A DNA stretch of 51,794 bases from assembly GCF_964213995.1 (NCBI RefSeq), contig NW_027592528.1, positions 1 through 51,794 of the forward strand, read 5' to 3'. Under the pieces are notes generated by a model, which ran no database searches, was not told the origin of the DNA, and was given only the letters and a program-made list of their open reading frames with translations. The position numbers and the translations under genes were made by a program. Of this stretch, positions 1,224 to 47,880 are shown piece by piece (the stretch's first letter is position 1; each line of letters opens with the position of its first letter). Origin of the DNA: Mustelus asterias. Lineage: Eukaryota.

Positions 1224-2599
1224 ACGAAGCGACCGACCGCTGACGACCCCTCCCCTGCCCCCTTCTCTTAAACCCCCTCCCCACCCCCTCCCCCTCCCAA
1301 TCTTTCCGCCATTTGTCAGTTCTCGTTTTCTAAGCAACAAGCGGGGGGGGGAAAAGAAGGAAATCGCTCGACCGTTGGCTGAGCGACCGGCGTTTCAGAA
1401 CAGGGTTTTTATTCTGAATTTAAATGAAGCATCTTTGAAGGGTGGGGGGGGGGGTGCGGAGGAAGGAGAGGAGCCTCTTGTTTTTCTCTCCCCCTTTCCC
1501 CTCTCTCTCCCCCATCCCCCCCCCCCCCCGCCAATCCCACGCTCGGTAACTCCCTCAAACCTCTCGCCATTTCCCGCCTTTCCAATCCTACCCCAAATCC
1601 AAAGTCGCAGACAAAATGGTCGACGGGGGATGGTTTTAATTTAGGGAAGTTATGTTGAAGGATATGACGAGAACTTGTTCTCCCCCCCCCCCTCCGCCCC
1701 CCCCCCCCTCCATCCCAACTCTCTCTCTCTCTCTCTCCCGCCCTTCACCCCCAAACCCCAGCCCCCATCGCCTGCAGTTCCCGCCCCCCCCGCCCCCATT
1801 TTTTGCTTTGAAGTTTCCGACCTGCTTAACGCACTCAATTCTCGGACCGAGAGGTGCTGCTTTTAATGTTTTGCTTTGGGGATGGGGAGTTTGTTTACTG
1901 GTGGGGTGGGGTGGGTATTGGGGGGGGGGGGCGGTGGGGTGTGTAGGTTATGGCTACTTATTTTGGTACGTTTAAACAAAAGGCCAGAAATGTCCGCCGT
2001 ACGTGCGTACGCGCTCGTGTGCCCCGATCTCTTTTCTCTCTCTCTCTCTTCTCGTGGTTTTTTTGCTTGGGGTTAGCCTTAGGGGTCCTCCTTGTCAGCT
2101 CTTTTTCTCCGATCCCAGGGCAGAGATGCAGACGAGGAGCTGGAGTTTAAGCTGCTCGGCTGCGCTGAGCGAGAGCGGTTTGAGCTGCAAGAGGGAAGTC
2201 CCCCTTCCCCCCTCCTCCTCCCGCCCTTCTCTTCCCCACCCCTCCACCCAGTTGGGGTTAATGGGAGAGACTCCCCTGTCAACACGGTGGGGACGCCATC
2301 CTTATTGCTGCCCCCTTTTCTTACCGATATATCTCTCTTCACCCCCCCCTCTTCGTGAGGTGGCCATCAAGCATCCACCCACCTGGCCTACTTTGCTCGA
2401 TCGGGGCATCGTGAGCGGGGGACCCCCGCGTGAGCCGGTGGAGTTGATGTAACACTCACTTTCCTCTTGCTCCTCTCTTTCCCCCTCCCCCCTTTCTGCC
2501 CTCGTTCTCTCCCCCCCCCCCAACCACCCTTTTTCCCTCCCTTTCCTTCCCCCTCCCTTTCCTTCCCCCTCCCTTTCCCTCCTCCTCCCTTTCCCCCCT

Positions 2600-4320
2600 C
2601 CTCCCTTTCCCCCTCTCCCTCCATTTTCCCCCCTCCCTCCATTTTCCCTCTCCCTCCATTTTCCCCTCTCCCTCCATTTTCCCCTCTCCCTCCATTTTCC
2701 CCTCTCCCTCCATTTTCCCCTCTCCCTCCATTTTCCCCTCTCCCTCCATTTTCCCCTCTCCCTCCATTTTCCCCTCTCCCTCCATTTTCCCCTCTCCCCT
2801 CCATTTTCCCCTCTCCCTCCATTTTCCCCTCTCCCTCCATTTTCCCCCTCCCTCCATTTTCCCCTCTCCCTTCATTTTCCCCTCTCCCTCCATTTTCCCC
2901 TCTCCCTCCATTTTCCCCTCTCCCTCCATTTTCCCCCCTGCCTCCATTTTCCCCTCTCCCTCCATTTTCCCCTCTCCCTCCATTTTCCCCTCTCCCTTCA
3001 TTTCCCCCCTCCCTCCATTTTCCCCTCTCCCTCCATTTTCCCCCCTCCCTCCATTTTCCCCCTCCCTCCATTTCCCCCGCCTCCATTTTCCCCTCTCCCT
3101 CCATTTCCCCCCTCCATTTTCCCCCCCTCCCTCCATTTTCCCCCCTCCCTCCATTTTCCCCCCTCCCTCCATTTTCCCCCCTCCCTCCATTTTCCCCCCT
3201 CCCTCCATTTTCCCCCCTCCCTCCATTTTCCCCCCTCCCTCCATTTTCCCCCCTCCCTCCATTTTCCCCCCTCCCTCCATTTTCCCCCTCCCTCCCTTTC
3301 CCCCCTCCCTCCATTTCCCCCCTCCCTCCATTTCCCCCCTCCCTCCATTTCCCCCCTCCCTCCATTTCCCCCCTCCCTCCATTTCCCCCTCCCTCCATTT
3401 CCCCCTCCTCCATTTCCCCCCTGCCTCCATTTTCCCCTCTCCCTCCATTTTCCCCCCTCCCTCCATTTTCCCGCCTCCCTCCATTTTCCCGCCTCCCTCC
3501 ATTTTCCCGCCTCCCTCCATTTTCCCGCCTCCCTCCATTTTCCCCCCTCCCTCCATTTTCCCCTCCCTCCATTTTCCCCTCCCTCCATTTTCCCCCTCCC
3601 TCCATTTTCCCCCCCTCCATTTTCCCCCCCTCCATTTTCCCCCCCTCCATTTCCCCCCCTCCATTTTCCCCCCTCCCTCCATTTTCCCCCCTCCCCGTCC
3701 CTTTTCCCCCTCCCTCCATTTTCCCGCCTCCCTCCATTTCCCCCTCCCTCCATTTCCCCCCTCCCTCCATTTCCCCCCTCCCGCCATTTTCCCCCCTCCC
3801 GCCATTTCCCCCCCCCTCCATTTTCCCCCCTCCCTCCATTTTCCCCCCTCCCCGTCCCTTTTCCCCTCCCTCCATTTTCCCCCCCTCCATTTCCCCCCTC
3901 CCTCCATTTCCCCCCTCCCTCCATTTCCCCCCTCCCTCCATTTCCCCCCTCCCTCCATTTCCCCCCTCCCTCCATTTCCCCCCTCCCTCCATTTCCCCCT
4001 TCCCTCCATTTCCCCCCTCCCTCCATTTCCCCCCTCCCTCCATTTCCCCCCTCCCTCCATTTCCCCCCTCCCTCCATTTCCCCCTTCCCTCCATTTCCCC
4101 CCTCCCTCCATTTCCCCCTCCCTCCATTTTCCCCCCTCCCTCCATTTTCCCCCCTCCCTCCATTTTCCCCCCTCCCTCCATTTTCCCCCCTCCCTCCATT
4201 TTCCCCCCTCCCTCCATTTCCCCCCCTCCCGTCCCTTTTCCCCCTCCCTCCATTTTCCCCCCTCCCTCCATTTCCCCCCTCCCTCCATTTCCCCCCCCTC
4301 CCCGTCCCTTTCCCCCCTCC
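2600..4320 (+). repeat. ~17-18 bp polypyrimidine tandem repeat (CCCTCCATTTTCCCCTCT)n
   Basis: Directly visible, about 1.7 kb; explains the long Pro/Gly-rich pseudo-ORFs. Confidence 0.95.
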
Positions 4321-4608
4321 CTCCTAGTCCAATGTTTCCAATCGTCCCACCGTGCGATCTGAAGTAGGTTTGAAAAGCTTTGTCAAGGATATCTGAATTC
4401 TGTATTTTGTTTTGTTTTAAGGCCTGTTTTAAGGGGGAGGGGGGGATTAGCCCAGGCTGTGTGAAGGGGGGGGGGGGGGGGGGGGCAGCAGAAAGCCGGA
4501 CGCGTGGGTTCAATGACAAGGCTGTGCTGGGCTAAAGGAGACCGGCAGTAGAAAGCAGCCTGTATGTTTTCTAGACTTCTTTCATACTGTATCAGTACTG
4601 TTGGGTTA

Positions 4609-4632
4609 ATTAAACATTTGAAGAATATTAAA
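4609..4632 (+). terminator. Candidate poly(A) signals ATTAAA (4609-4614, 4627-4632)
   Basis: Variant hexamers with upstream TGTA elements near 4561 and 4588. Confidence 0.5.
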
Positions 4633-4809
4633 CAAAAAACACACACGCTCGCCTCTTTACTCCCCACCCTACATCGCAGTCAGGACAGGAAGGGATAGAG
4701 CGAGAGAGAGGGGGGGAAGAACGGGTTTATCAGTGGTCCACTCGGGCCTGGTGGGGTTGGGGATCACAGATCTTTCACTCTCGATGCTTGAAGTGAGTTC
4801 CAGTCCCAC

Positions 4810-7800
4810 ATTTCTCCCCTCTCTCTCTCTCAGCCCCTCTCCCTCCNNNNNNNNNNNNNNNNNNNNNNNNNNNNNNNNNNNNNNNNNNNNNNNNNNNNNN
4901 NNNNNNNNNNNNNNNNNNNNNNNNNNNNNNNNNNNNNNNNNNNNNNNNNNNNNNNNNNNNNNNNNNNNNNNNNNNNCCTCTCTCTCTCGCTGTCCCCCCT
5001 TCTCTCGCTCACTGTCCCCCTTCTCTCGCTCACTGTCCCCCTTCTCTCTCTCACTGTCCCCCCTTTTCTCTCTCTCACTGTCCCCTTCTCTCTCTCACTG
5101 TCCCCCCTTCTCTCTCTCACTGTCCCCCCTTCTCTCTCTCACTGTCCCCCCTTCTCTCTCTCACTGTCCCCCCTTCTCTCTCTCTCACTGTCCCCCCTTC
5201 TCTCTCTCTCACTGTCCCCCCTTTCTCTCTCTCTCACTGTCCCCCCTTCTCTCTCTCACTGTCCCCCTTCTCTCTCTCACTGTCCCCCCTTCTCTCTCTC
5301 ATTGTCCCCCCTTCGCTCTCTCACTGTCCCCCCTTCTCTCTCTCACTGTCCCCCCCCTTCTCTCTCTCTCTGTCCCCCTTCTCTCTCTCACTGTCCCCCC
5401 TTCCCTCTCTCACTGTCCCCCCTTCTCTCTCTCACTGTCCCTCCCTCTCTCTCTCTCTGTCCCCCTTCTCTCTCTCACTGTCCCCCTTCTCTCTCTCTCA
5501 CTGTCCCCCCTTCTCTCTCTCTCACTGTCCCCCCTTCTCTCTCTCTCACTGTCCCCCCTTCTCTCCCTCTCACTGTCCCCCCTTCTCTCTCTCACTGTCC
5601 CCCCTTCTCTCTCTCACTGTCCCCCCTTCTCTCTCTCACTGTCCCCCCTTCCCTCTCTCTCTCTGTCCCCCCTTCCCTCTCTCTCACTGTCCCCCCCTTC
5701 TCTCTCTCACTGTCCCCCCTTCTCTCTGTCTCTCTGTCCCCCCCTTCTCTCTCTCCCTGGCCCCCTCTCTCTCTCTCACTGTCCCCCCTTCTCTCTCTCT
5801 CTGTCCCCCCCTTCTCTCTCTCTCACTGTCCCCCCTTCTCTCTCTCTCTGTCCCCCCTTCTCTCTCTCTCACTGTCCCCCCTGTCTCTCTCTCACTGTCC
5901 CCCCTTCTCTCTCTCTCACTGTCCCCCTTCTCTCTCTCACTGTCCCCCCTTCTCTCTCTCACTGTCCCCCCTTCTCTCTCTCACTGTCCCCCCTTCTCTC
6001 TCACTGTCCCCCCTTCTCTCTCTCTCACTGTCCCCCCTGTGTCTCTCTCTCTCGCTGTCCCCCCTTCTCTCTCTCTGTCCCCCTTCTCTCTCTCACTGCC
6101 CCCCCCCTTCTCTCTCTCTCTCACTGTCCCCCTTCTCTCTCTCACTGTCCCCCCTTCTCTCTCTCACTGTCCCCCCTTCTCTCTCTCACTGTCCCCCCTT
6201 CTCTCTCTCACTGTCCCTCCTTCTCTCTTTCACTGTCCCCCTTCTTTCTCTCACTGCCCCCCCCCTTCTCTCTCTCACTGTCCCCCCTTCTCTCTCTCAC
6301 TGTCCCCCCTTCTCTCTCTCACTGTCCCCCCTTCTCTCTCTCACTGTCCCCCCTTCTCTCTCTCACTGTCCCCCCTTCTCTCTCTCACTGTCCCCCCTTC
6401 TCTCTCTCACTGTCCCCCCTTCTCTCTCTCACTGTCCCCCCTTCTCTCTCTCACTGTCCCCCCTTCTCTCTCTCACTGTCCCCCCTTCTCTCTCTCACTG
6501 TCCCCCCTTCTCTCTCTCACTGTCCCCCCTTCTCTCTCTCACTGTCCCCCCTTCTCTCTCTCACTGTCCCCCCTTCTCTCTCTCACTGTCCCCCCTTCTC
6601 TCTCTCACCCCTTCTCTCTCTCACTGTCCCCCTTCTCTCTCTCACTGGCCCCCCTTCTCTCTCTCACTGTCCCCCCTTCTCTCTCTCACTGCTCCCCCTT
6701 CTCTCTCTCTCACTGCCCCCCTTCTCTCTCTCACTGTCCCCCCTTCTCTCTCTCACTGCCCCCCCTTCTCTCTCTCACTGACCTCCCCCTTCTCTCTCTC
6801 ACTGCCCCCCCCTTCTCTCTCTCACTGTCCCCACTTCTCTCTTCCACTGTCCCCCCTTCTCTCTCTCACTGTCCCCCCTTCTCTCTCTCACTGTCCCCCC
6901 TTCTCTCTCTCTCTCTGTCCCCCTTCTCTCTCTCTCACTGTGCCCCCCCTTCCCTCTGTCACTGTCCTCCCCTTCCCTCTCTCACCGTCCCCCTTCTTTC
7001 TCTCACTGTCCCCCCTTCTCTCTCTCTCACTGTCCTCCCCTTCTCTCTCTCACTGTCCCCCCTTCTCTCTCTCACTCTCTCCCTTCTCTCTCTCACTCCC
7101 CCCCTTCTCTCTCTCTCTGTCCCCCTTCTCTCTCTCACTGTCCCCCCTTCTCTCTCTCTCTGTCCCCCCTTCTCTCTCTCACTGTCCCCCCCTTCTCTCT
7201 CTCTCTGTCCCCCTGTCCCCTTCTTCCCTCTCTCTCACTGTCCCCCCTTCTCTCTCTCTCTGTCCCCTTCTCTCTCTCTCACTGTCCCCCCTTCTCTCTC
7301 TCTCTGTCCCCCTTCTCTCTCTCTCTGTCCCCCTTCTCTCTCTCTCTGTCCCCCTTCTCTCTCTCTCACTGTCCCCCCTTCTCTCTCTCGCTGTCCCCCT
7401 TCTCTCTCTCTCACTGTCCCCCCTTCTCTCTCTCACCGTCCCCCCTTCTCTCTCTCTCACTGTCCCCCCTGTCTCTCTCTCCTGTCCCCCCTTCTCTCTC
7501 TCTCTGTCCCCCTTCTCTCTCTCACTGCCCCCCCCTTCTCTCTCTCTCTCACTGTCCCCCTTCTCTCTCTCACTGTCCCCCTTCTCTCTCTCACTGTCCC
7601 CCCTTCTCTCTCTCACTGTCCCTCCTTCTCTCTTTTTTCTCTCACTGCCCCCCCCTTCTCTCTCTCACTGTCCCCCCTTCTCTCCTCTCACTGTCCCCCC
7701 CTTCTCTCTCTCACTGTCCCCCCTTCTCTCTCTCACTGTCCCCCCTTCTCTCTCTCACTGTCCCCCCTTCTCTCTCTCACTGTCCCCCCTTCTCTCTCTC

Positions 7801-10800
7801 ACTGTCCCCCCTTCTCTCTCTCACTGTCCCCCCTTCTCTCTCTCACTGTCCCCCCTTCTCTCTCTCACTGTCCCCCCTTCTCTCTCTCACTGTCCCCCCT
7901 TCTCTCTCTCACTGTCCCCCCTTCTCTCTCTCACTGTCCCCCCCTTCTCTCTCTCACTGCTCCCCCCTTCTCTCTCTCACTGCTCCCCCTTCTCTCTCTC
8001 TCACTGCCCCCCTTCTCTCTCTCACTGTCCCCCCTTCTCTCTCTCACTGCCCCCCCTTCTCTCTCTCACTGCCCTCCCCCTTCTCTCTCTCACTGCCCCC
8101 CCTTCTCTCTCTCACTGTCCCCCCTTCTCTCTTCCACTGTCCCCCTTCTCTCTTCCACTGTCCCCTCTTCTCTCTCTCACTGTCCCCCTTCTCTCTCTCA
8201 CTGTCCCCCCTTCTCTCTCTCTCTCTCTGTCCCCCTTCTCTCTCTCTCACTGTGCCCCCCCTTCCTCTGTCACTGTCCTCCCCTTCCCTCTCTCACCGTC
8301 CCCCCTTCTTTCTCTCACTGTCCCCCTTCTCTCTCTCACTGTCCCCCCTTCTCTCTCTCACTCTCCCCCCTTCTCTCTCTCACTCTCCCCCCTTCTCTCT
8401 CTCACTCTCCCCCCCTTCTCTCTCTCACTCTCCCCCTTCTCTCTCTCTCTGTCCCCCTTCTCTCTCTCTCACTGTCCCCCCCTTCTCTCTCTGTCCCCCC
8501 CTTCTCTCTCTCACTGTCCCCCCTTCTCTCTCTCACTGTCCTCCCCTTCCCTCTCTCACCGTCCCCCCTTCTTTCTCTCACTGTCCCCCCTTCTCTCTCT
8601 CTCACTGTCCCCCTTCTCTCTCTCACTCTCCCCCCTTCTCTCTCTCACTCTCCCCCTTCTCTCTCTCACTGTCCCCCCTTCTCTCTCTCACTGTCCCCCC
8701 TTCTCTCTCTCACTGTCCCCCCTTCTCTCTCACTGTCCCCCCCTTCTCTCTCTCACTGTCCCCCCTTCTCTCTCTCACTGCTCCCCCCTTCTTCTTTCTC
8801 ACTGCTCCCCCTTCTCTCTCTCTCACTGCCCCCCCTTCTCTCTCTCACTGTCCCCCCTTCTCTCTCTCACTGCCCTCCCCCTTCTCTCTCTCACTGCCCT
8901 CCCCCTTCTCTCTCTCACTGCCCCCCCCTTCTCTCTCTCACTGTCCCCCCTTCTCTCTTCCACTGTCCCCCCTTCTCTCTTCCACTGTCCCCTCTTCTCT
9001 CTCTCACTGTCCCCCCTTCTCTCTCTCACTGTCCCCCCTTCTCTCTCTCTCTCTCTGTCCCCCTTTCTCTCTCTCTCACTGTGCCCCCCCTTCCCTCTGT
9101 CACTGTCCTCCCCTTCCCTCTCTCACCGTCCCCCCTTCTTTCTCTCACTGTCCCCCCTTCTNNNNNNNNNNNNNNNNNNNNNNNNNNNNNNNNNNNNNNN
9201 NNNNNNNNNNNNNNNNNNNNNNNNNNNNNNNNNNNNNNNNNNNNNNNNNNNNNNNNNNNNNNNNNNNNNNNNNNNNNNNNNNNNNNNNNNNNNNNNNNNN
9301 NNNNNNNNNNNNNNNNNNNTCTCTCACTGTCCCCCCCTTCTCTCTCTCTCTGTCCCCCCCTTCTCTCTCTCACTGTCCCCCCCTTCTCTCTCTCTCTGTC
9401 CCCCCCTTCTCTCTCTCTCTGTCCCCCTTCTCTCTCTCTCACTGTCCCCCCTTCTCTCTCTCTCTGTCCCCCTTCTCTCTCTCTCACTGTCCCCCTTCTC
9501 TCACTCACTGTCCCCCCCTTCTCTCTCTCTCTGTCCCCCTTCTCTCTCTCTCACTGTCCCCCCTTCTCTCTCTCTCTGTCCCCCTTCTCTCTCTCTCACT
9601 GTCCCCCCTTCTCTCTCTCGCTGTCCCCCTTCTTTCTCTCTCACTGTCCCCCTTCTCTCTCTCTCACTGTCCCCCCTTCTCTCTCTCTCACTGTCCCCCC
9701 TTCTCTCTCTCACTGTCCCCCCTTCTCTCTCTCACTGCTCCCCCTTCTCTCTCTCTCACTGCCCCCCCTTCTCTCTCTCACTGTCCCCCCTTCTCTCTCT
9801 CACTGCCCCCCCTTCTCTCTCTCACTGCCCTCCCCCTTCTCTCTCTCACTGCCCCCCCCTTCTCTCTCTCACTGTCCCCCCTTCTCTCTTCCACTGTCCC
9901 CCCTTCTCTCTCTCACTGTCCCCCCTTCTCTCTCTCACTGTCCCCCCTTCTCTCTCTCTCTCTCTGTCCCCCTTTCTCTCTCTCTCACTGTGCCCCCCCT
10001 TCCCTCTGTCACTGTCCTCCCCTTCCCTCTCTCACTGTCCCCCCTTCTTTCTCTCACTGTCCCCCCTTCTCTCTCTCTCACTGTCCCCCCTTCTCTCTCT
10101 CACTCTCCCCCCTTCTCTCTCTCACTCTCCCCCCTTCTCTCTCTCACTCTCCCCCCTTCTCTCTCTCTCTGTCCCCCTTCTCTCTCTCNNNNNNNNNNNN
10201 NNNNNNNNNNNNNNNNNNNNNNNNNNNNNNNNNNNNNNNNNNNNNNNNNNNNNNNNNNNNNNNNNNNNNNNNNNNNNNNNNNNNNNNNNNNNNNNNNNNN
10301 NNNNNNNNNNNNNNNNCTTCTCTCTCTCTCTGTCCCCCTTCTCTCTCTCTCACTGTCCCCCCTTCTCTCTCTCTCTGTCCCCCTTCTCTCTCTCTCTGTC
10401 CCCCTTCTCTCTCTCTCTGTCCCCCTTCTCTCTCTCTCACTGTCCCCCCTTCTCTCTCTCGCTGTCCCCCTTCTCTCTCTCTCACTGTCCCCCCTTCTCT
10501 CCCTCACTGTCCCCCCTTCTCTCTCTCTCACTGTCCCCCCTGTCTCTCTCTCGCTGTCCCCCCTTCTCTCTCTCTCTGTCCCCCTTCTCTCTCTCTCACT
10601 GTCCCCCCCCTTCCCTCTGTCACTGTCCCCCCCTTCCCTCTCTCACCGTCCCCCCTTCTCTCTCTCACTGTCCCCCCTTCTCTCTCTCTCTGTCCCCCTT
10701 CTCTCTCTCTCACTGTCCCCCCCTTCCCTCTGTCACTGTCCCCCCCTTCCCTCTCTCACCGTCCCCCCTTCTCTCTCTCACTGTCCCCCCTTCTCTCTCT

Positions 10801-13800
10801 CTCACTGTCCCCCCTTCTCTCTCTCACTCTCCCCCCTTCCCTCTCTCACTCTCCCCCCTTCTCTCTCTCTCACTGTCCCCCCCTTCTCTCTCTCTCTGTC
10901 CCCCCTTCTCTCTCTCACTGTCCCCCTTCTCTCTCTCTCTGTCCCCCTTCTCTCTCTCTCACTGTCCCCCCTTCTCTCTCTCTCTGTCCCCCTTCTCTCT
11001 CTCTCACTGTCCCCCCTTCTCTCTCTCTCTGTCCCCCTTCTCTCTCTCTCTGTCCCCCTTCTCTCTCTCTCACTGTCCCCCCTTCTCTCTCTCTCTGTCC
11101 CCCTTCTCTCTCTCTCACTGTCCCCCCTTCTCTCTCTCTCTGTCCCCCTTCTCTCTCTCTCACTGTCCCCCCTTCTCTCTCTCTCTGTCCCCCTTCTCTC
11201 TCTCTCTGTCCCCCTTGTCTCTCTCTCACTGTCCCCCCTTCTCTCTCTCTCTGTCCCCCTTCTCTCTCTCTCACTGTCCCCCCCCTTCCCTCTGTCACTG
11301 TCCCCCCCTTCCCTCTCTCACCGTCCCCCCTTCTCTCTCTCACTGTCCCCCCTTCTCTCTCTCTCACTGTCCCCCCTTCTCTCTCTCACTCTCCCCCCTT
11401 CTCTCTCACTCTCCCCCCTTCTCTCTCTCTCACTGTCCCCCCCTTCTCTCTCTCTCTGTCCCCCCCTTCTCTCTCTCACTGTCCCCCTTCTCTCTCTCTC
11501 TGTCCCCCTTCTCTCTCTCTCACTGTCCCCCCTTCTCTCTCTCTCTGTCCCCCTTCTCTCTCTCTCACTGTCCCCCCTTCTCTCTCTCTCTGTCCCCCTT
11601 CTCTCTCTCTCTGTCCCCCTTCTCTCTCTCTCACTGTCCCCCCTTCTCTCTCTCTCTGTCCCCCTTCTCTCTCTGTCCCCCTTCTCTCTCTCTCACTGTC
11701 CCCCCTCTCTCACTCTCACTGTCCCCCTTCTCTCTCTCACTGTCCGCCCTTCTCTCTCTCACTGTCCGTCCTTCTCTCTCTCACTGTCCCCCCTTCTCTC
11801 TCTCACTGTCCCCCCTTCTCTCTCTCACTGTCCCCCTTCTCTCTCTCACTGTCCCCCTTCTCTCTCTCACTGTCCCCCCTTCTCTCTCTCACTGTCCCCC
11901 TTCTCTCTCTCTGTCCCCCCTTCTCTCTCACACTGTCCCCCATTCTCTCTCTCTCACTGTCCCCCCCTTCTCTCTCTAACTGTCCCCCTTCTCTCACTGT
12001 TCCCCCTTCTCTCTCTAACTGTCCCCCCTTCTCTCTCTCACTGTCCCCCCTTCTCTCTCTCACTGTCCCCCCTTCTCTCTCTCTCACTGTCCCCCCTTCT
12101 CTCTCTCTCACTGTCCCCCCTTCTCTCTCTCTCACTGTCCCCCCTTCTCTCTCTCACTGTCCCCCCTTCTCTCTCTCACTGTCCCCCCTTCTCTCTCTCA
12201 TTGTCCCCCCTTCGCTCTCTCACTGTCCCACTGTCCCTTCTCTCTCTCACTGTCCCCCCCTTCTCTCTCTCTCTGTCCCCCTTCTCTCTCTCACTGTCCC
12301 CCCTTCCCTCTCTCACTGTCCCCCCTTCTCTCTCTCACTGTCCCTCCCTCTCTCTCTCTCTGTCCCCCTTCTCTCTCTCACTGTCCCCCTTCTCTCTCTC
12401 TCACTGTCCCCCCTTCTCTCTCTCTCACTGTCCCCCCTTCTCTCTCTCTCACTGTCCCCCCTTCTCTCCCTCTCACTGTCCCCCCTTCTCTCTCTCACTG
12501 TCCCCCCTTCTCTCTCTCACTGTCCCCCCTTCTCTCTCTCACTGTCCCCCTTCCCTCTCTCTCTCTGTCCCCCTTCCCTCTCTCTCACTGTCCCCCCCTT
12601 CTCTCTCTCACTGTCCCCCCCTTCTCTCTGTCTCTCTGTCCCCCCCTTCTCTCTCTCCCTGGCCCCCTTCTCTCTCTCTCACTGTCCCCCCTTCTCTCTC
12701 TCACTGTCCCCCCTTCTCTCTCTCTCACTGTCCCCCCTTCTCTCTCTCACTCTCCCCCCTTCTCTCTCACTCTCCCCCCTTCTCTCTCTCTCACTGTCCC
12801 CCCCTTCTCTCTCTCTCTGTCCCCCCCTTCTCTCTCTCACTGTCCCCCTTCTCTCTCTCTCTGTCCCCCTTCTCTCTCTCTCACTGTCCCCCCTTCTCTC
12901 TCTCTCTGTCCCCCTTCTCTCTCTCTCACTGTCCCCCCTTCTCTCTCTCTCTGTCCCCCTTCTCTCTCTCTCTGTCCCCCTTCTCTCTCTCTCACTGTCC
13001 CCCCTTCTCTCTCTCTCTGTCCCCCTTCTCTCTCTGTCCCCCTTCTCTCTCTCTCACTGTCCCCCCTCTCTCACTCTCACTGTCCCCCTTCTCTCTCTCA
13101 CTGTCCGCCCTTCTCTCTCTCACTGTCCGTCCTTCTCTCTCTCACTGTCCCCCCTTCTCTCTCTCACTGTCCCCCCTTCTCTCTCTCACTGTCCCCCCTT
13201 CTCTCTCTCACTGTCCCCCTTCTCTCTCTCACTGTCCCCCCTTCTCTCTCTCACTGTCCCCCTTCTCTCTCTCTGTCCCCCCTTCTCTCTCACACTGTCC
13301 CCCATTCTCTCTCTCTCACTGTCCCCCCTTCTCTCTCTAACTGTCCCCCTTCTCTCACTGTTCCCCCTTCTCTCTCTAACTGTCCCCCCTTCTCTCTCTC
13401 ACTGTCCCCCCTTCTCTCTCTCACTGTCCCCCCTTCTCTCTCTCACTGTCCCCCTTCTCTCTCTCTGTCCCCCCTTCTCTCTCACTGTCCCCCTTCTCTC
13501 TCTCTGTCCCCCCTTCTCTCTCACACTGTCCCCCATTCTCTCTCTCTCACTGTCCCCCCTTCTCTCTCTCACTGTCCCCCCTTCTCTCTCTCACTGTTCC
13601 CTCCTTCTCTCTCTCACTGTTCCCCTTCTCTCTCTCTCTCTGTCCCCCCTTCTCTCTCTCTCACTGTCACCCCTTCTCTCTCTCTCACTGTCACCACTTC
13701 TCTCTCTCTCTCTGTCCCCCCTTCTCTCTCTCTCACTGTCTCCCCTTCTCTCTCTCACTGTCCCCCTTCTCTCTCTCACTGTCCCCCCTTCTCTCTCTCT

Positions 13801-13900
13801 CACTGTCCCCCCTTCTCTCTCACTGTTCCCCCCACCTCTCTCTCACTTTCTTCCCCCTCTCTCGCTCTCTGTCTCTCGCTGGCCCCTCTCTCTCGCTAGC
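4810..13900 (+). repeat. ~9 kb pyrimidine-rich satellite, ~20-24 bp unit (CACTGTCCCCCCTTCTCTCTCT)n, with three internal N gaps
   Basis: Directly visible; hundreds of copies with variable C-run and CT-run lengths. Confidence 0.97.
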
Positions 13901-14654
13901 CCCCTCTCTCTCTCGCGGAGGGAAGGGAGGGTGTGAGGACTGTGCCTGATATTTTATCCCTCAGAGCACTAGAAAAAAAAACATTCACTGTTCATTCGTC
14001 AAGCACGACTTGTGGGATCTTTCTGTGTTAAAATTGGCGGCCCTAGCATCTGTGACTGCTCTCAGAAAATGTACCGTGGCTGTGGGGATGCTTTGATGCT
14101 GGCTGTGGGGGTGAGAGATACGACAGGAAAGCATTCAATGTTACCTTTAGGCGTGCCAAGGATCCAGATCATAAGCTGGAACAGTGGAAGGCCATTCAGC
14201 CCTTTTGAGCCTACTTTCCCCCTCCCTCCCTCCCCAGTTAATAATGGCTAATCTGACCTTGGGCCTCAGCTCCACTTTCCTGCCCGTCTCCCCCCTCCCT
14301 CCCCCTGTCGATGGGGAATCTCTCTAACTCGGGCCTTGGATATATTCAGTGTCCTGCAGCCTCCACTGCTCCTCTGGGGGAGAGAATCCCACAGACCCAC
14401 CCCCCCTCTGAGAGAAGGAATTCCCTCCTCATCTCCATCTGCAATGGAAGGGGGAAAGAGACCCCCCAGTTTTCAAACCATGACCCCTCTCATTCTAGAT
14501 TTCCCCCGTGAGGGGAAACATCCTCTCAGCCGCCACCCTCTCAAACTCCTCCCCCACTCCCACCCCCCACTCAGAATCATATATGTTTCAATAATATCAT
14601 CTGTCATCCTTTCGAAACTCCAATAGGTATCGCCCCCTGCCCCAAACCTCTGTT

Positions 14655-46465: not shown

Positions 46466-46606
46466 TATTAAGGGGCAATTTAGCATGGCCAATTCACCCA
46501 ATTTATACATTCTTGGACATTAAGGGGCAATTTAGCATGGCCAATCCACCTAATCTGAACATCTTTGGACACTAAGGGGCAATTTAGCATGGCCAATCCA
46601 CCTAAC

Positions 46607-47880
46607 AGAGAACAGTACAGCACAGAACAGGCCCTTCGGCCCTCGATGTTGTGCCGAGCTTTATCTGAAACCAAGATCAAGCGATCCCACTCCCTATCAT
46701 CCTGGTGTGCTCCATGTGCCTATCCAATAACCGCTTAAATGTTCCTAAAGTGTCTGACTCCACTATCCCTGCAGGCAGTCCATTCCACACCCCAACCACT
46801 CTCTGAGTAAAGAACCTACCTCGGACATCCTTCCTATATCTCCCACCACGAACCCTATAGTTATGCCCCCTTGTAATAGCTCCATCCACCTGAGGAAATA
46901 GTCTTTGAACGTTCACTCTATCTATCCCCTTCATCATTTTAAAAACCTCTGTTAAGTCTCCCCTCAGCCTCCTCCGCTCCAGAGAGAACAGCCCTGGCTC
47001 CCTCAACCTTTCCTCATAAGACCTACCCTCCAAACCAGGCAGCATCCTGGTAAATCTCCTCTGCACTCTTTCCAGCGCTTCCACATCCTTCTTATAGTGA
47101 GGTGACCAGAACTGCACACAATATTCCAAATGTGGTCTCACCAAGGTCCTGTACAGTTGCAGCATAACCCCACGGCTCTTAAACTCCAACGCCATGTTAA
47201 TAAACGCTAACACACTATAGGCCTTCTTGGCTAAGATCAAGTGTAGTATGGTCGGCAGCCCATGGTCGGCCGCACTTGGTTGAGGTCATGAGGTTACGCT
47301 GAAGCTTCATATGTTTCATATGGAGCAATTTTTTAAAGCGGCATCTCGGCCTTTTGGCTAAGATGCAAATGAGCTCAAGTCTTGGAGGAGGAACCTCCCC
47401 TTTCTCCAATCAGCTTGGCTCATGTAGATCGGGCCCAGGACAGGGTGGTTTTGGTCGCTCGCCCTGTCTTGCCAGCCTGGATCTGAAATGTCTCAACTTG
47501 TTGAGACTCTGAATTGGATTTGATTTGATTGAATTGGAAAAGTAGGCCTTCTTCACAGCTCTATCCACTTGAGTGGCAACCTTTAGAGATCTGTGGATAT
47601 GAACCCCAAGATCTCTCTGTTCCTACACAGTCTTCAGAACCCTACCTTTGACCCTGTAATCCACATTTAAATTAGTCCTACCAAAATGAATCACCTCACA
47701 TTTATCAGGGTTAAACTCCATTTGCCATTTTTCAGCCCAGCTTTACATCCTATCTATGTCTCTTTGCAGCCTACAACAGCCCTCCACCTCATCCACTACT
47801 CCACCAATCTTGGTGTCATCAGCAAATTTACTGATCCACTCTTCAGCCCCCTCCTCTAAGTCATTAATAAAAATCACAAA
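46607..47880 (-). mobile_element. CR1 LINE 3' fragment interrupted by a U2-headed insertion
   Basis: Minus-strand ORF KKAYSVLAFI...LVRPHLEYCVQFW; continues past 47543 into the FADD region. Confidence 0.92.
47229..47542 (+). mobile_element. 314-bp insertion carrying two U2 snRNA 5' fragments, with an 11-bp target-site duplication
   Basis: TTGGCTAAGATCAAGTGTAGTAT (47227-47249) equals U2 nt 17-39; TCTCGGCCTTTTGGCTAAGAT (47344-47364) equals U2 nt 7-27; TAGGCCTTCTT at 47218-47228 and 47543-47553. Confidence 0.85.

Follow-up and report, generated by a model that had tools for sequence, protein, structure and literature searches.

On balance, and with confidence that is reasonable though well short of complete, we read the 314-bp insert at 47229-47542 of the window (the whole 51,794-nucleotide stretch of DNA that was analysed) as a truncated, tail-less copy of a SINE headed by U2 snRNA, a SINE that is likely mobilised by a Keno-type LINE and likely transcribed from copies lying in U2 snRNA gene arrays.

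The insert is bordered on each side by an exact 11-bp repeat (47218-47228 and 47543-47553). Because two host paralogues (loci L194 and L110, 96-97% identical across the 150-bp left flank) lack the insert and carry the 11-mer once, the repeat is a true target-site duplication, and these empty sites bear out the boundaries proposed from the letters of the window. A third paralogue (L143) carries a single 11-mer with one change, and the insert was absent from 18 of 18 host copies spanning the window site. The final two letters of the left duplication (47227-47228) are common to U2 17-18 and can be assigned to either the U2 head or the duplication, and six more letters match U2 11-16 over a one-base bulge; the first two letters of the right duplication equal the start of the family tail. 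The interrupted host is a LINE fragment on the minus strand, with its 3' part at 46600-47228 and its 5' part, which has two in-frame stops, at 47543-47880. Its RT C-terminal ORF is continuous across the insertion site and runs on the strand opposite to the insert. By its motifs the host is presumably CR1 or CR1-like; Pfam searches with three host pieces gave no family above cut-off. An independent insertion was found in L011, at most 4 bp from the window's host position. The host LINE adjoins repeats of a 52-bp unit at 46469-46605, and the same unit forms many arrays of up to 25 copies each over 22621-46605; further away, an approximately 11-kb C/T-rich satellite of 18- and 22-bp units with strong strand skew occupies 2574-13914.

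The insert, whose features are given here on the plus strand, has stop codons in all six frames and is non-coding. It begins with a truncated head (47229-47249) identical to nt 19-39 of U2 as encoded in this genome, in agreement with the sequence-only reading. Full copies begin at nt 1, and the end of the head corresponds to the Keno cut site as given in PMC4640811. Next come a junction (47250-47271) specific to the youngest subfamily, A, which holds 38 of the 93 classified copies in a sample biased by the query, and an anti-U2 arm (47272-47295), predicted to pair back onto the head, whose other strand resembles the Keno target and has been struck by later insertions. A predicted 10-bp hairpin (47304-47326) is followed by an A-T6-A3 tract (47327-47337) that Rfam aligns with the U2 Sm site and that, being like the family's own tail, is a possible fossil monomer end; it lacks the closing G of the Sm site consensus. 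The inner U2 piece was correctly described as exact for nt 7-27, but it is actually longer, forming a degenerate second head that covers U2 4-33 (47341-47371), with stem-loop I extended by 3 predicted pairs. The remainder consists of two predicted hairpin modules, A (47370-47422), an old duplicate of B, and B (47426-47484), which also occurs in a sister U2-headed element (L266), a predicted 7-bp hairpin C (47490-47507) and a GATTT/GAATT-rich 3' end (47511-47542). This end had been taken for the tail; the family's real 3' end is TA-T(n)-A(n), which is missing here. With six substitutions and one insertion relative to the subfamily A consensus, 5' truncation and no tail, the window copy is an ordinary dead copy of its family.

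The 3.68-Gb genome was searched with the insert. Of 3,126 candidates, 40 were scored and all 40 were full-length at 97-100%; the 3' 23-mer of the family has 2,589 exact matches genome-wide, its reversed control none. The family is about 345 bp long and has at least 2,589 copies in ten subfamilies. A multi-copy, non-autonomous, U2-headed family had been predicted, together with a genome-wide check of copy number, duplications and copies inside U2 genes; all of these were found, and the single-copy outcome is ruled out. A far higher copy number, which might be read from 135,653 Rfam candidates, is also ruled out by the absence of any family copy in 20 random 10-kb regions (200 kb).

The fetched loci yielded 119 distinct copies, of which 100 carry the head. 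The full head of the family is 100% identical over U2 1-39 to the genome's U2 gene (the reference being shared by 19 of 20 fetched gene copies). Full copies leave U2 at nt 33-40, and heads end mostly at nt 39; 24 of the 100 heads, the modal class, begin exactly at nt 1, about four of these behind variant-U2 spacer. The 3' terminus of full copies is a TA-T(n)-A(n) tail, and target duplications have a median length of 14 bp (29 clean sites, with nested, short or unclear cases left out). Each subfamily has a constant head/body junction: 91 of 93 copies with near-full heads fall into ten junction-defined subfamilies, and the nine with three or more copies show 95-98% identity to their own consensus. 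Tandem copies are common, 15 of 100 listed matches lying less than 1 kb from another (counted by eye), and 9 of the 29 top matches have an older copy at the same locus, most within 50 bp. That such inserts are independent U2/retrocopy chimeras or assembly artefacts, with no family behind them, has a negligible probability: snRNA chimeras do occur in general, but here thousands of copies share one structure, bear individual duplications and form nested subfamilies, and the body sequence was matched in 6 of the 8 public runs compared, from six organisms (the runs being contigs of guessed type), with no coverage of the body in runs X2 and X12.

Rfam gave no match at its gathering threshold over the whole window; in E-value mode it returned U2 only, plus chance matches, and no ribozyme family. 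A classical Pol III SINE was rejected, as Rfam matches U2 without any tRNA, 7SL or 5S head and the head contains T-runs. U4, U1 and U2 40-191 were rejected as sources of the body, since for subfamilies A, H and I none of them aligned better than shuffles did.

One full copy was predicted to fold at -147.6 kcal/mol (z -8.7). Over nine subfamily consensuses, variable columns made up 27 of 204 paired and 56 of 145 unpaired positions, and the changes in variable pairs were compatible and one-sided in 18 cases, double in 2 and pair-breaking in 9, counted among related rather than independent sequences. The arm 3' of the junction is predicted to pair with the head. Head nt 5-33 shows 0 differences from the U2 gene at 29 positions in all nine consensuses, the body drifting by up to 36 of 256, and all six compatible changes in the head/arm helix lie on the arm side. 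In older subfamilies the branch-pairing bases are predicted to be covered, in subfamily A only 2 of 6. Masking of the head as the function of the arm is a tentative proposal drawn from these folds, to which we give somewhat less than an even chance.

The tract that precedes the inner head looks like the tail of the family; within the oldest subfamily, modules A and B are duplicates of each other (0 of 500 shuffles as good); and in sister element L266 a U2 head is joined directly to module B (score 72, shuffle maximum 32). From these three observations we infer that the SINE may be a fossil dimer produced by tandem insertion, a process still visible in present copies. Repeated U2 capture had been suggested at the outset; two U2 heads are indeed stacked, but the second looks like the trace of a tandem insertion and not of captured U2 RNA. 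Tandem copies also bear on the idea that the SINE has its own promoter, internal or array-borne, with an upstream copy giving snRNA-type promoter elements to the next. The octamer-like word ATGCAAAT stands 3' of the inner U2 piece and again about 195 bases upstream of U1 genes. It shares letters with the degenerate second head and with the stem of that head, however, and so has another origin; by eye there is no convincing PSE match in the SINE, and PSE/DSE candidates picked by eye in U1, U2 and U4 flanks were unconvincing and left unused. T-runs in the head further argue against Pol III (PMC4494074), and we consider a promoter of its own improbable.

A zf-RVT search revealed a young LINE with 92-99% identity between copies in ORF2, which encodes 1,144 aa with an APE-RT-zf-RVT arrangement; ORF1, of Tx1 type, has zinc knuckles. 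Of the 58 loci sampled, 40 came from the match list and 18 were chosen, in most cases, for long ORFs. The LINE resembles Keno, the U2-specific Tx1 element described in PMC4494074 and PMC4640811, in possessing an APE endonuclease and in having U2 sequence from nt 38/39 next to its 3' end; unlike Keno as described there, it is followed on its 3' side by U2 nt 38 onward at only 4 of the 58 loci, to which a 15-unit array is added. It fits Keno with relaxed specificity, cutting U2 at nt 38/39 and landing mostly elsewhere. The array, a second U2 array of the genome (L076; G000:C24:44.81-44.94 Mb), is built of 8,035-bp units that are nearly identical. Every unit contains an intact U2, a Keno copy inserted at U2 38/39 with a duplication of 21 bp and, inside Keno ORF2, a short repeat; the multiplication of the units reflects either array amplification or an assembly effect. 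Older Keno copies (78-88%) followed by U2 40-191 in L233 and L198 (G000:C24:41.74-41.76 Mb) record a long history of U2 targeting.

All seven full-length Keno copies carry a U2 head. So do 2 of 51 truncated copies (caps at L080:2299-2330 and L082:2575-2630), which indicates that de novo head capture occurs; the L082 cap contains the SINE junction, pointing to a probable template jump onto SINE RNA. The Keno 5' UTR starts with the complement of U2 2-29 (1 of 300 shuffles pairs as well) and, in the predicted structure, folds back onto the U2 head of Keno itself (L085). A U2-targeting LINE had been anticipated, along with a search for an autonomous element sharing the 3' tail of the SINE. The LINE is present and its insertion sites are common with those of the SINE, but the two share nothing beyond a few terminal letters: the SINE body gave no significant alignment to Keno (local score 23; shuffles mean 22.6). 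The SINE is no internal deletion of Keno, and origin as a deleted Keno or SIDE was rejected, its ends not being LINE-derived.

SINE and Keno share their targeting. Over 13 positions, the U2 cut site was matched at 5.5 by 29 SINE sites and at 4.6 by 20 Keno sites, against 3.3 in controls; the 24 dispersed SINE sites alone reached 5.1 versus 3.3, as did 0 of 2,000 controls. Both sets of sites have a common consensus near RNARY|AWY. The window insert had been placed at a U2-like site. The family does prefer sites that imitate the Keno cut site (U2 38/39), but the window site is no better than random, matching 1 of 13 positions, or 4 when shifted by one base (control mean 3.3). The most plausible reading of the window target's likeness to U2 11-18 is 5'-junction microhomology, which is common at truncated R1/R2 junctions (PMC2718515); mimicry of U2 11-18 as the family target was rejected, contiguous 5' microhomology averaging 1 base (0-3) in 18 copies.

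A SINE was found within 400 bp at 21 of the 58 Keno loci (one picked for that), versus 0 matches in the 20 random 10-kb regions. In L085, Keno and SINEs stand in tandem on one repeated duplication, and both elements have inserted antisense into the arm of older SINEs (L009, L027, L105, L123, L124), whose reverse strand mimics the U2 site. Target duplications are of similar length (median 15 bp for Keno, 14 for the SINE), and sister short elements with different 3' halves (L266, L272, L278) also lie at U2 38/39. The SINE is very probably mobilised by the Keno-type LINE of this genome. It is highly improbable that Keno merely shares the preferred sites of another enzyme (Utopia, or another L1/Tx1 family) acting as the main mobiliser. 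The lack of a common tail would suit this idea, Utopia cuts the identical U2 site (PMC4640811), and our LINE sample, drawn from the top zf-RVT matches, is nearly all one family. SINE and Keno nevertheless agree in relaxed consensus, duplication length and T/A tail style, stack in tandem on one duplication, strike the same antisense hot spot, and the long inserts at the U2 site are Keno.

SINE copies also occur inside U2 genes. Six exact junctions between SINE tail and U2 were found (control 0) and about 12 by looser searches. At the 5' side, six copies lie seamlessly at U2 +1 behind U2 upstream DNA. Five of these stand behind the spacer of variant-U2 genes (C21 array plus dispersed composites), which are 90% identical to main U2 and form 448-bp units (L079, L229, L230; G000:C21:28.05-28.08 Mb); this array is heavily invaded by Keno, with some insertions seamless at nt 33-35. 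The sixth lies where the C24 array ends, preceded by the main U2 promoter; over 1.6 kb its flank shares 99.25% identity with a main-array unit that is intact. This copy (L192) is internally deleted and is the sole copy behind that flank; since the genome contains a single instance of its deletion junction and no progeny were found, it is not shown to be a master. In three dispersed composites (C1, C6, C14), variant-U2 spacer is joined to the SINE head within 10-18-bp duplications; a fourth (C8) has no clear duplication. Because these duplication-bounded composites contain array spacer, array-derived RNA was their likely template, though RNA from upstream of +1, and hence read-through rather than initiation at +1. 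Alternatively, the composites could stem from a template jump by way of the shared head, or from a subsequent insertion in place. The main U2 array (L192, L195-L197; G000:C24:43.016-43.061 Mb) consists of 1,833-bp units. Among 20 distinct units sampled, 8 are scarred at the Keno site, 1 carries a SINE and 11 are intact; in the scar, nt 38-51 are replaced by reiterated U2 19-37 and 19-29.

Transcription of the SINE from U2 loci is, in our view, probable. The fuller proposal, for which the chances are about even, is that U2 genes serve as the breeding site of the SINE, which would home with Keno to nt 38/39, take the gene's first 39 bases and its external Pol II promoter, fold the head away by the antisense arm and seed thousands of dispersed copies. 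In such a cycle Keno would nick U2 at nt 38/39, and the cDNA, through its U2 head, would anneal to nt 1-39 of the gene itself, so that the SINE is joined seamlessly at U2 +1; annealed, uniform 5' junctions have a precedent in R2/R1, where target sequence is carried at the RNA's 5' end and template jumps to snRNA are reported (PMC3774820 and PMC2718515). The U2 promoter or array read-through would then make an RNA starting with U2 1-39, so that the head is renewed from the gene, and the anti-U2 arm would fold it away. Relaxed Keno targeting would finally scatter mostly dead copies, the window copy included, often beside older ones.

A Keno-mobilised SINE might instead owe its transcription to promoters that happen to flank it or to read-through from the host, its head kept identical to U2 by the reverse transcriptase switching onto abundant U2 snRNA tethered in trans by the arm, and the U2 copies being by-products of Keno targeting. 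We hold this, the main rival, to be unlikely, although several observations suit it. Arm-U2 duplexes are predicted at -28 to -47 kcal/mol versus about -19 for shuffles, and the Keno 5' UTR also pairs with U2 2-29; heads were acquired de novo by the two truncated Keno copies and in L203; the array scars reiterate U2 pieces; and Kojima 2015 documented repeated 5' additions and proposed flanking transcription (PMC4494074). Exact and looser junction searches also found no U2-resident copy of subfamily A, that of the window copy, which counts against transcription from U2 loci; array collapse in the assembly may hide one. The constancy of the junction within each subfamily speaks against this switching, as does the lack of a shared non-U2 5' extension among the 100 heads. 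None of the listed 5'-truncated SINE copies bears a fresh head, although a seamless switch inside the head would look alike. Transcription from U2 loci and this flanking-transcription route can coexist.

The tested features of the SINEU class were all found here: an snRNA head (here U2), a short multi-copy non-coding structure, an A-tail with duplications and a target shared with Tx1. Kojima 2015 (PMC4494074) found SINEU in crocodilians only, where it targets Mariner-N4 or Mariner-N4_AMi; the freely accessible papers that were searched describe no U2-headed SINE beyond the crocodilians. The present family resembles SINEU-1, -2 and -3 and their Tx1-Mar partners in its U2-derived head, stacked snRNA pieces, length below 500 bp, A-rich tail and tandem insertion, and also in sharing its target with a Keno-related Tx1 lineage whose members are themselves snRNA-headed, in lacking a LINE-derived tail and in its T-runs. 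It differs, as far as a comparison by description allows, in having U2 or a relaxed mimic as target, with diverse flanks (U2 or older copies), in a head that ends at the Keno cut site, in copies at U2 +1 and in the antisense arm after the head. With R2/R1 and SIDEs in 28S rDNA (PMC3414825, PMC3774820 and PMC2718515) it would share the lack of a promoter and co-transcription from the target gene, which for the SINE is proposed; SIDEs, however, are deleted LINEs with a ribozyme and confined to rDNA, whereas the SINE is not LINE-derived, matches no Rfam ribozyme and is mostly dispersed. Utopia, with crocodilian families whose U2 preference is weakened (PMC4640811), uses the same U2 site with relaxed specificity as here; unlike the SINE, it is autonomous and has a restriction-like endonuclease.

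Kojima 2015 left the transcription of SINEU open, an internal promoter being lacking (PMC4494074). The question becomes directly testable here, because the family is young, the partner LINE is intact and copies lie in register at U2 +1. If U2 genes are the breeding site, this would explain how snRNA-headed SINEs are transcribed without internal promoters, and it would extend the R2-type strategy of living in one's target gene to a SINE that is not LINE-derived. The U2 array would bear a cost, namely Keno-site scars in two fifths of the main-array units sampled, a case of a site-specific retrotransposon damaging an essential snRNA array.
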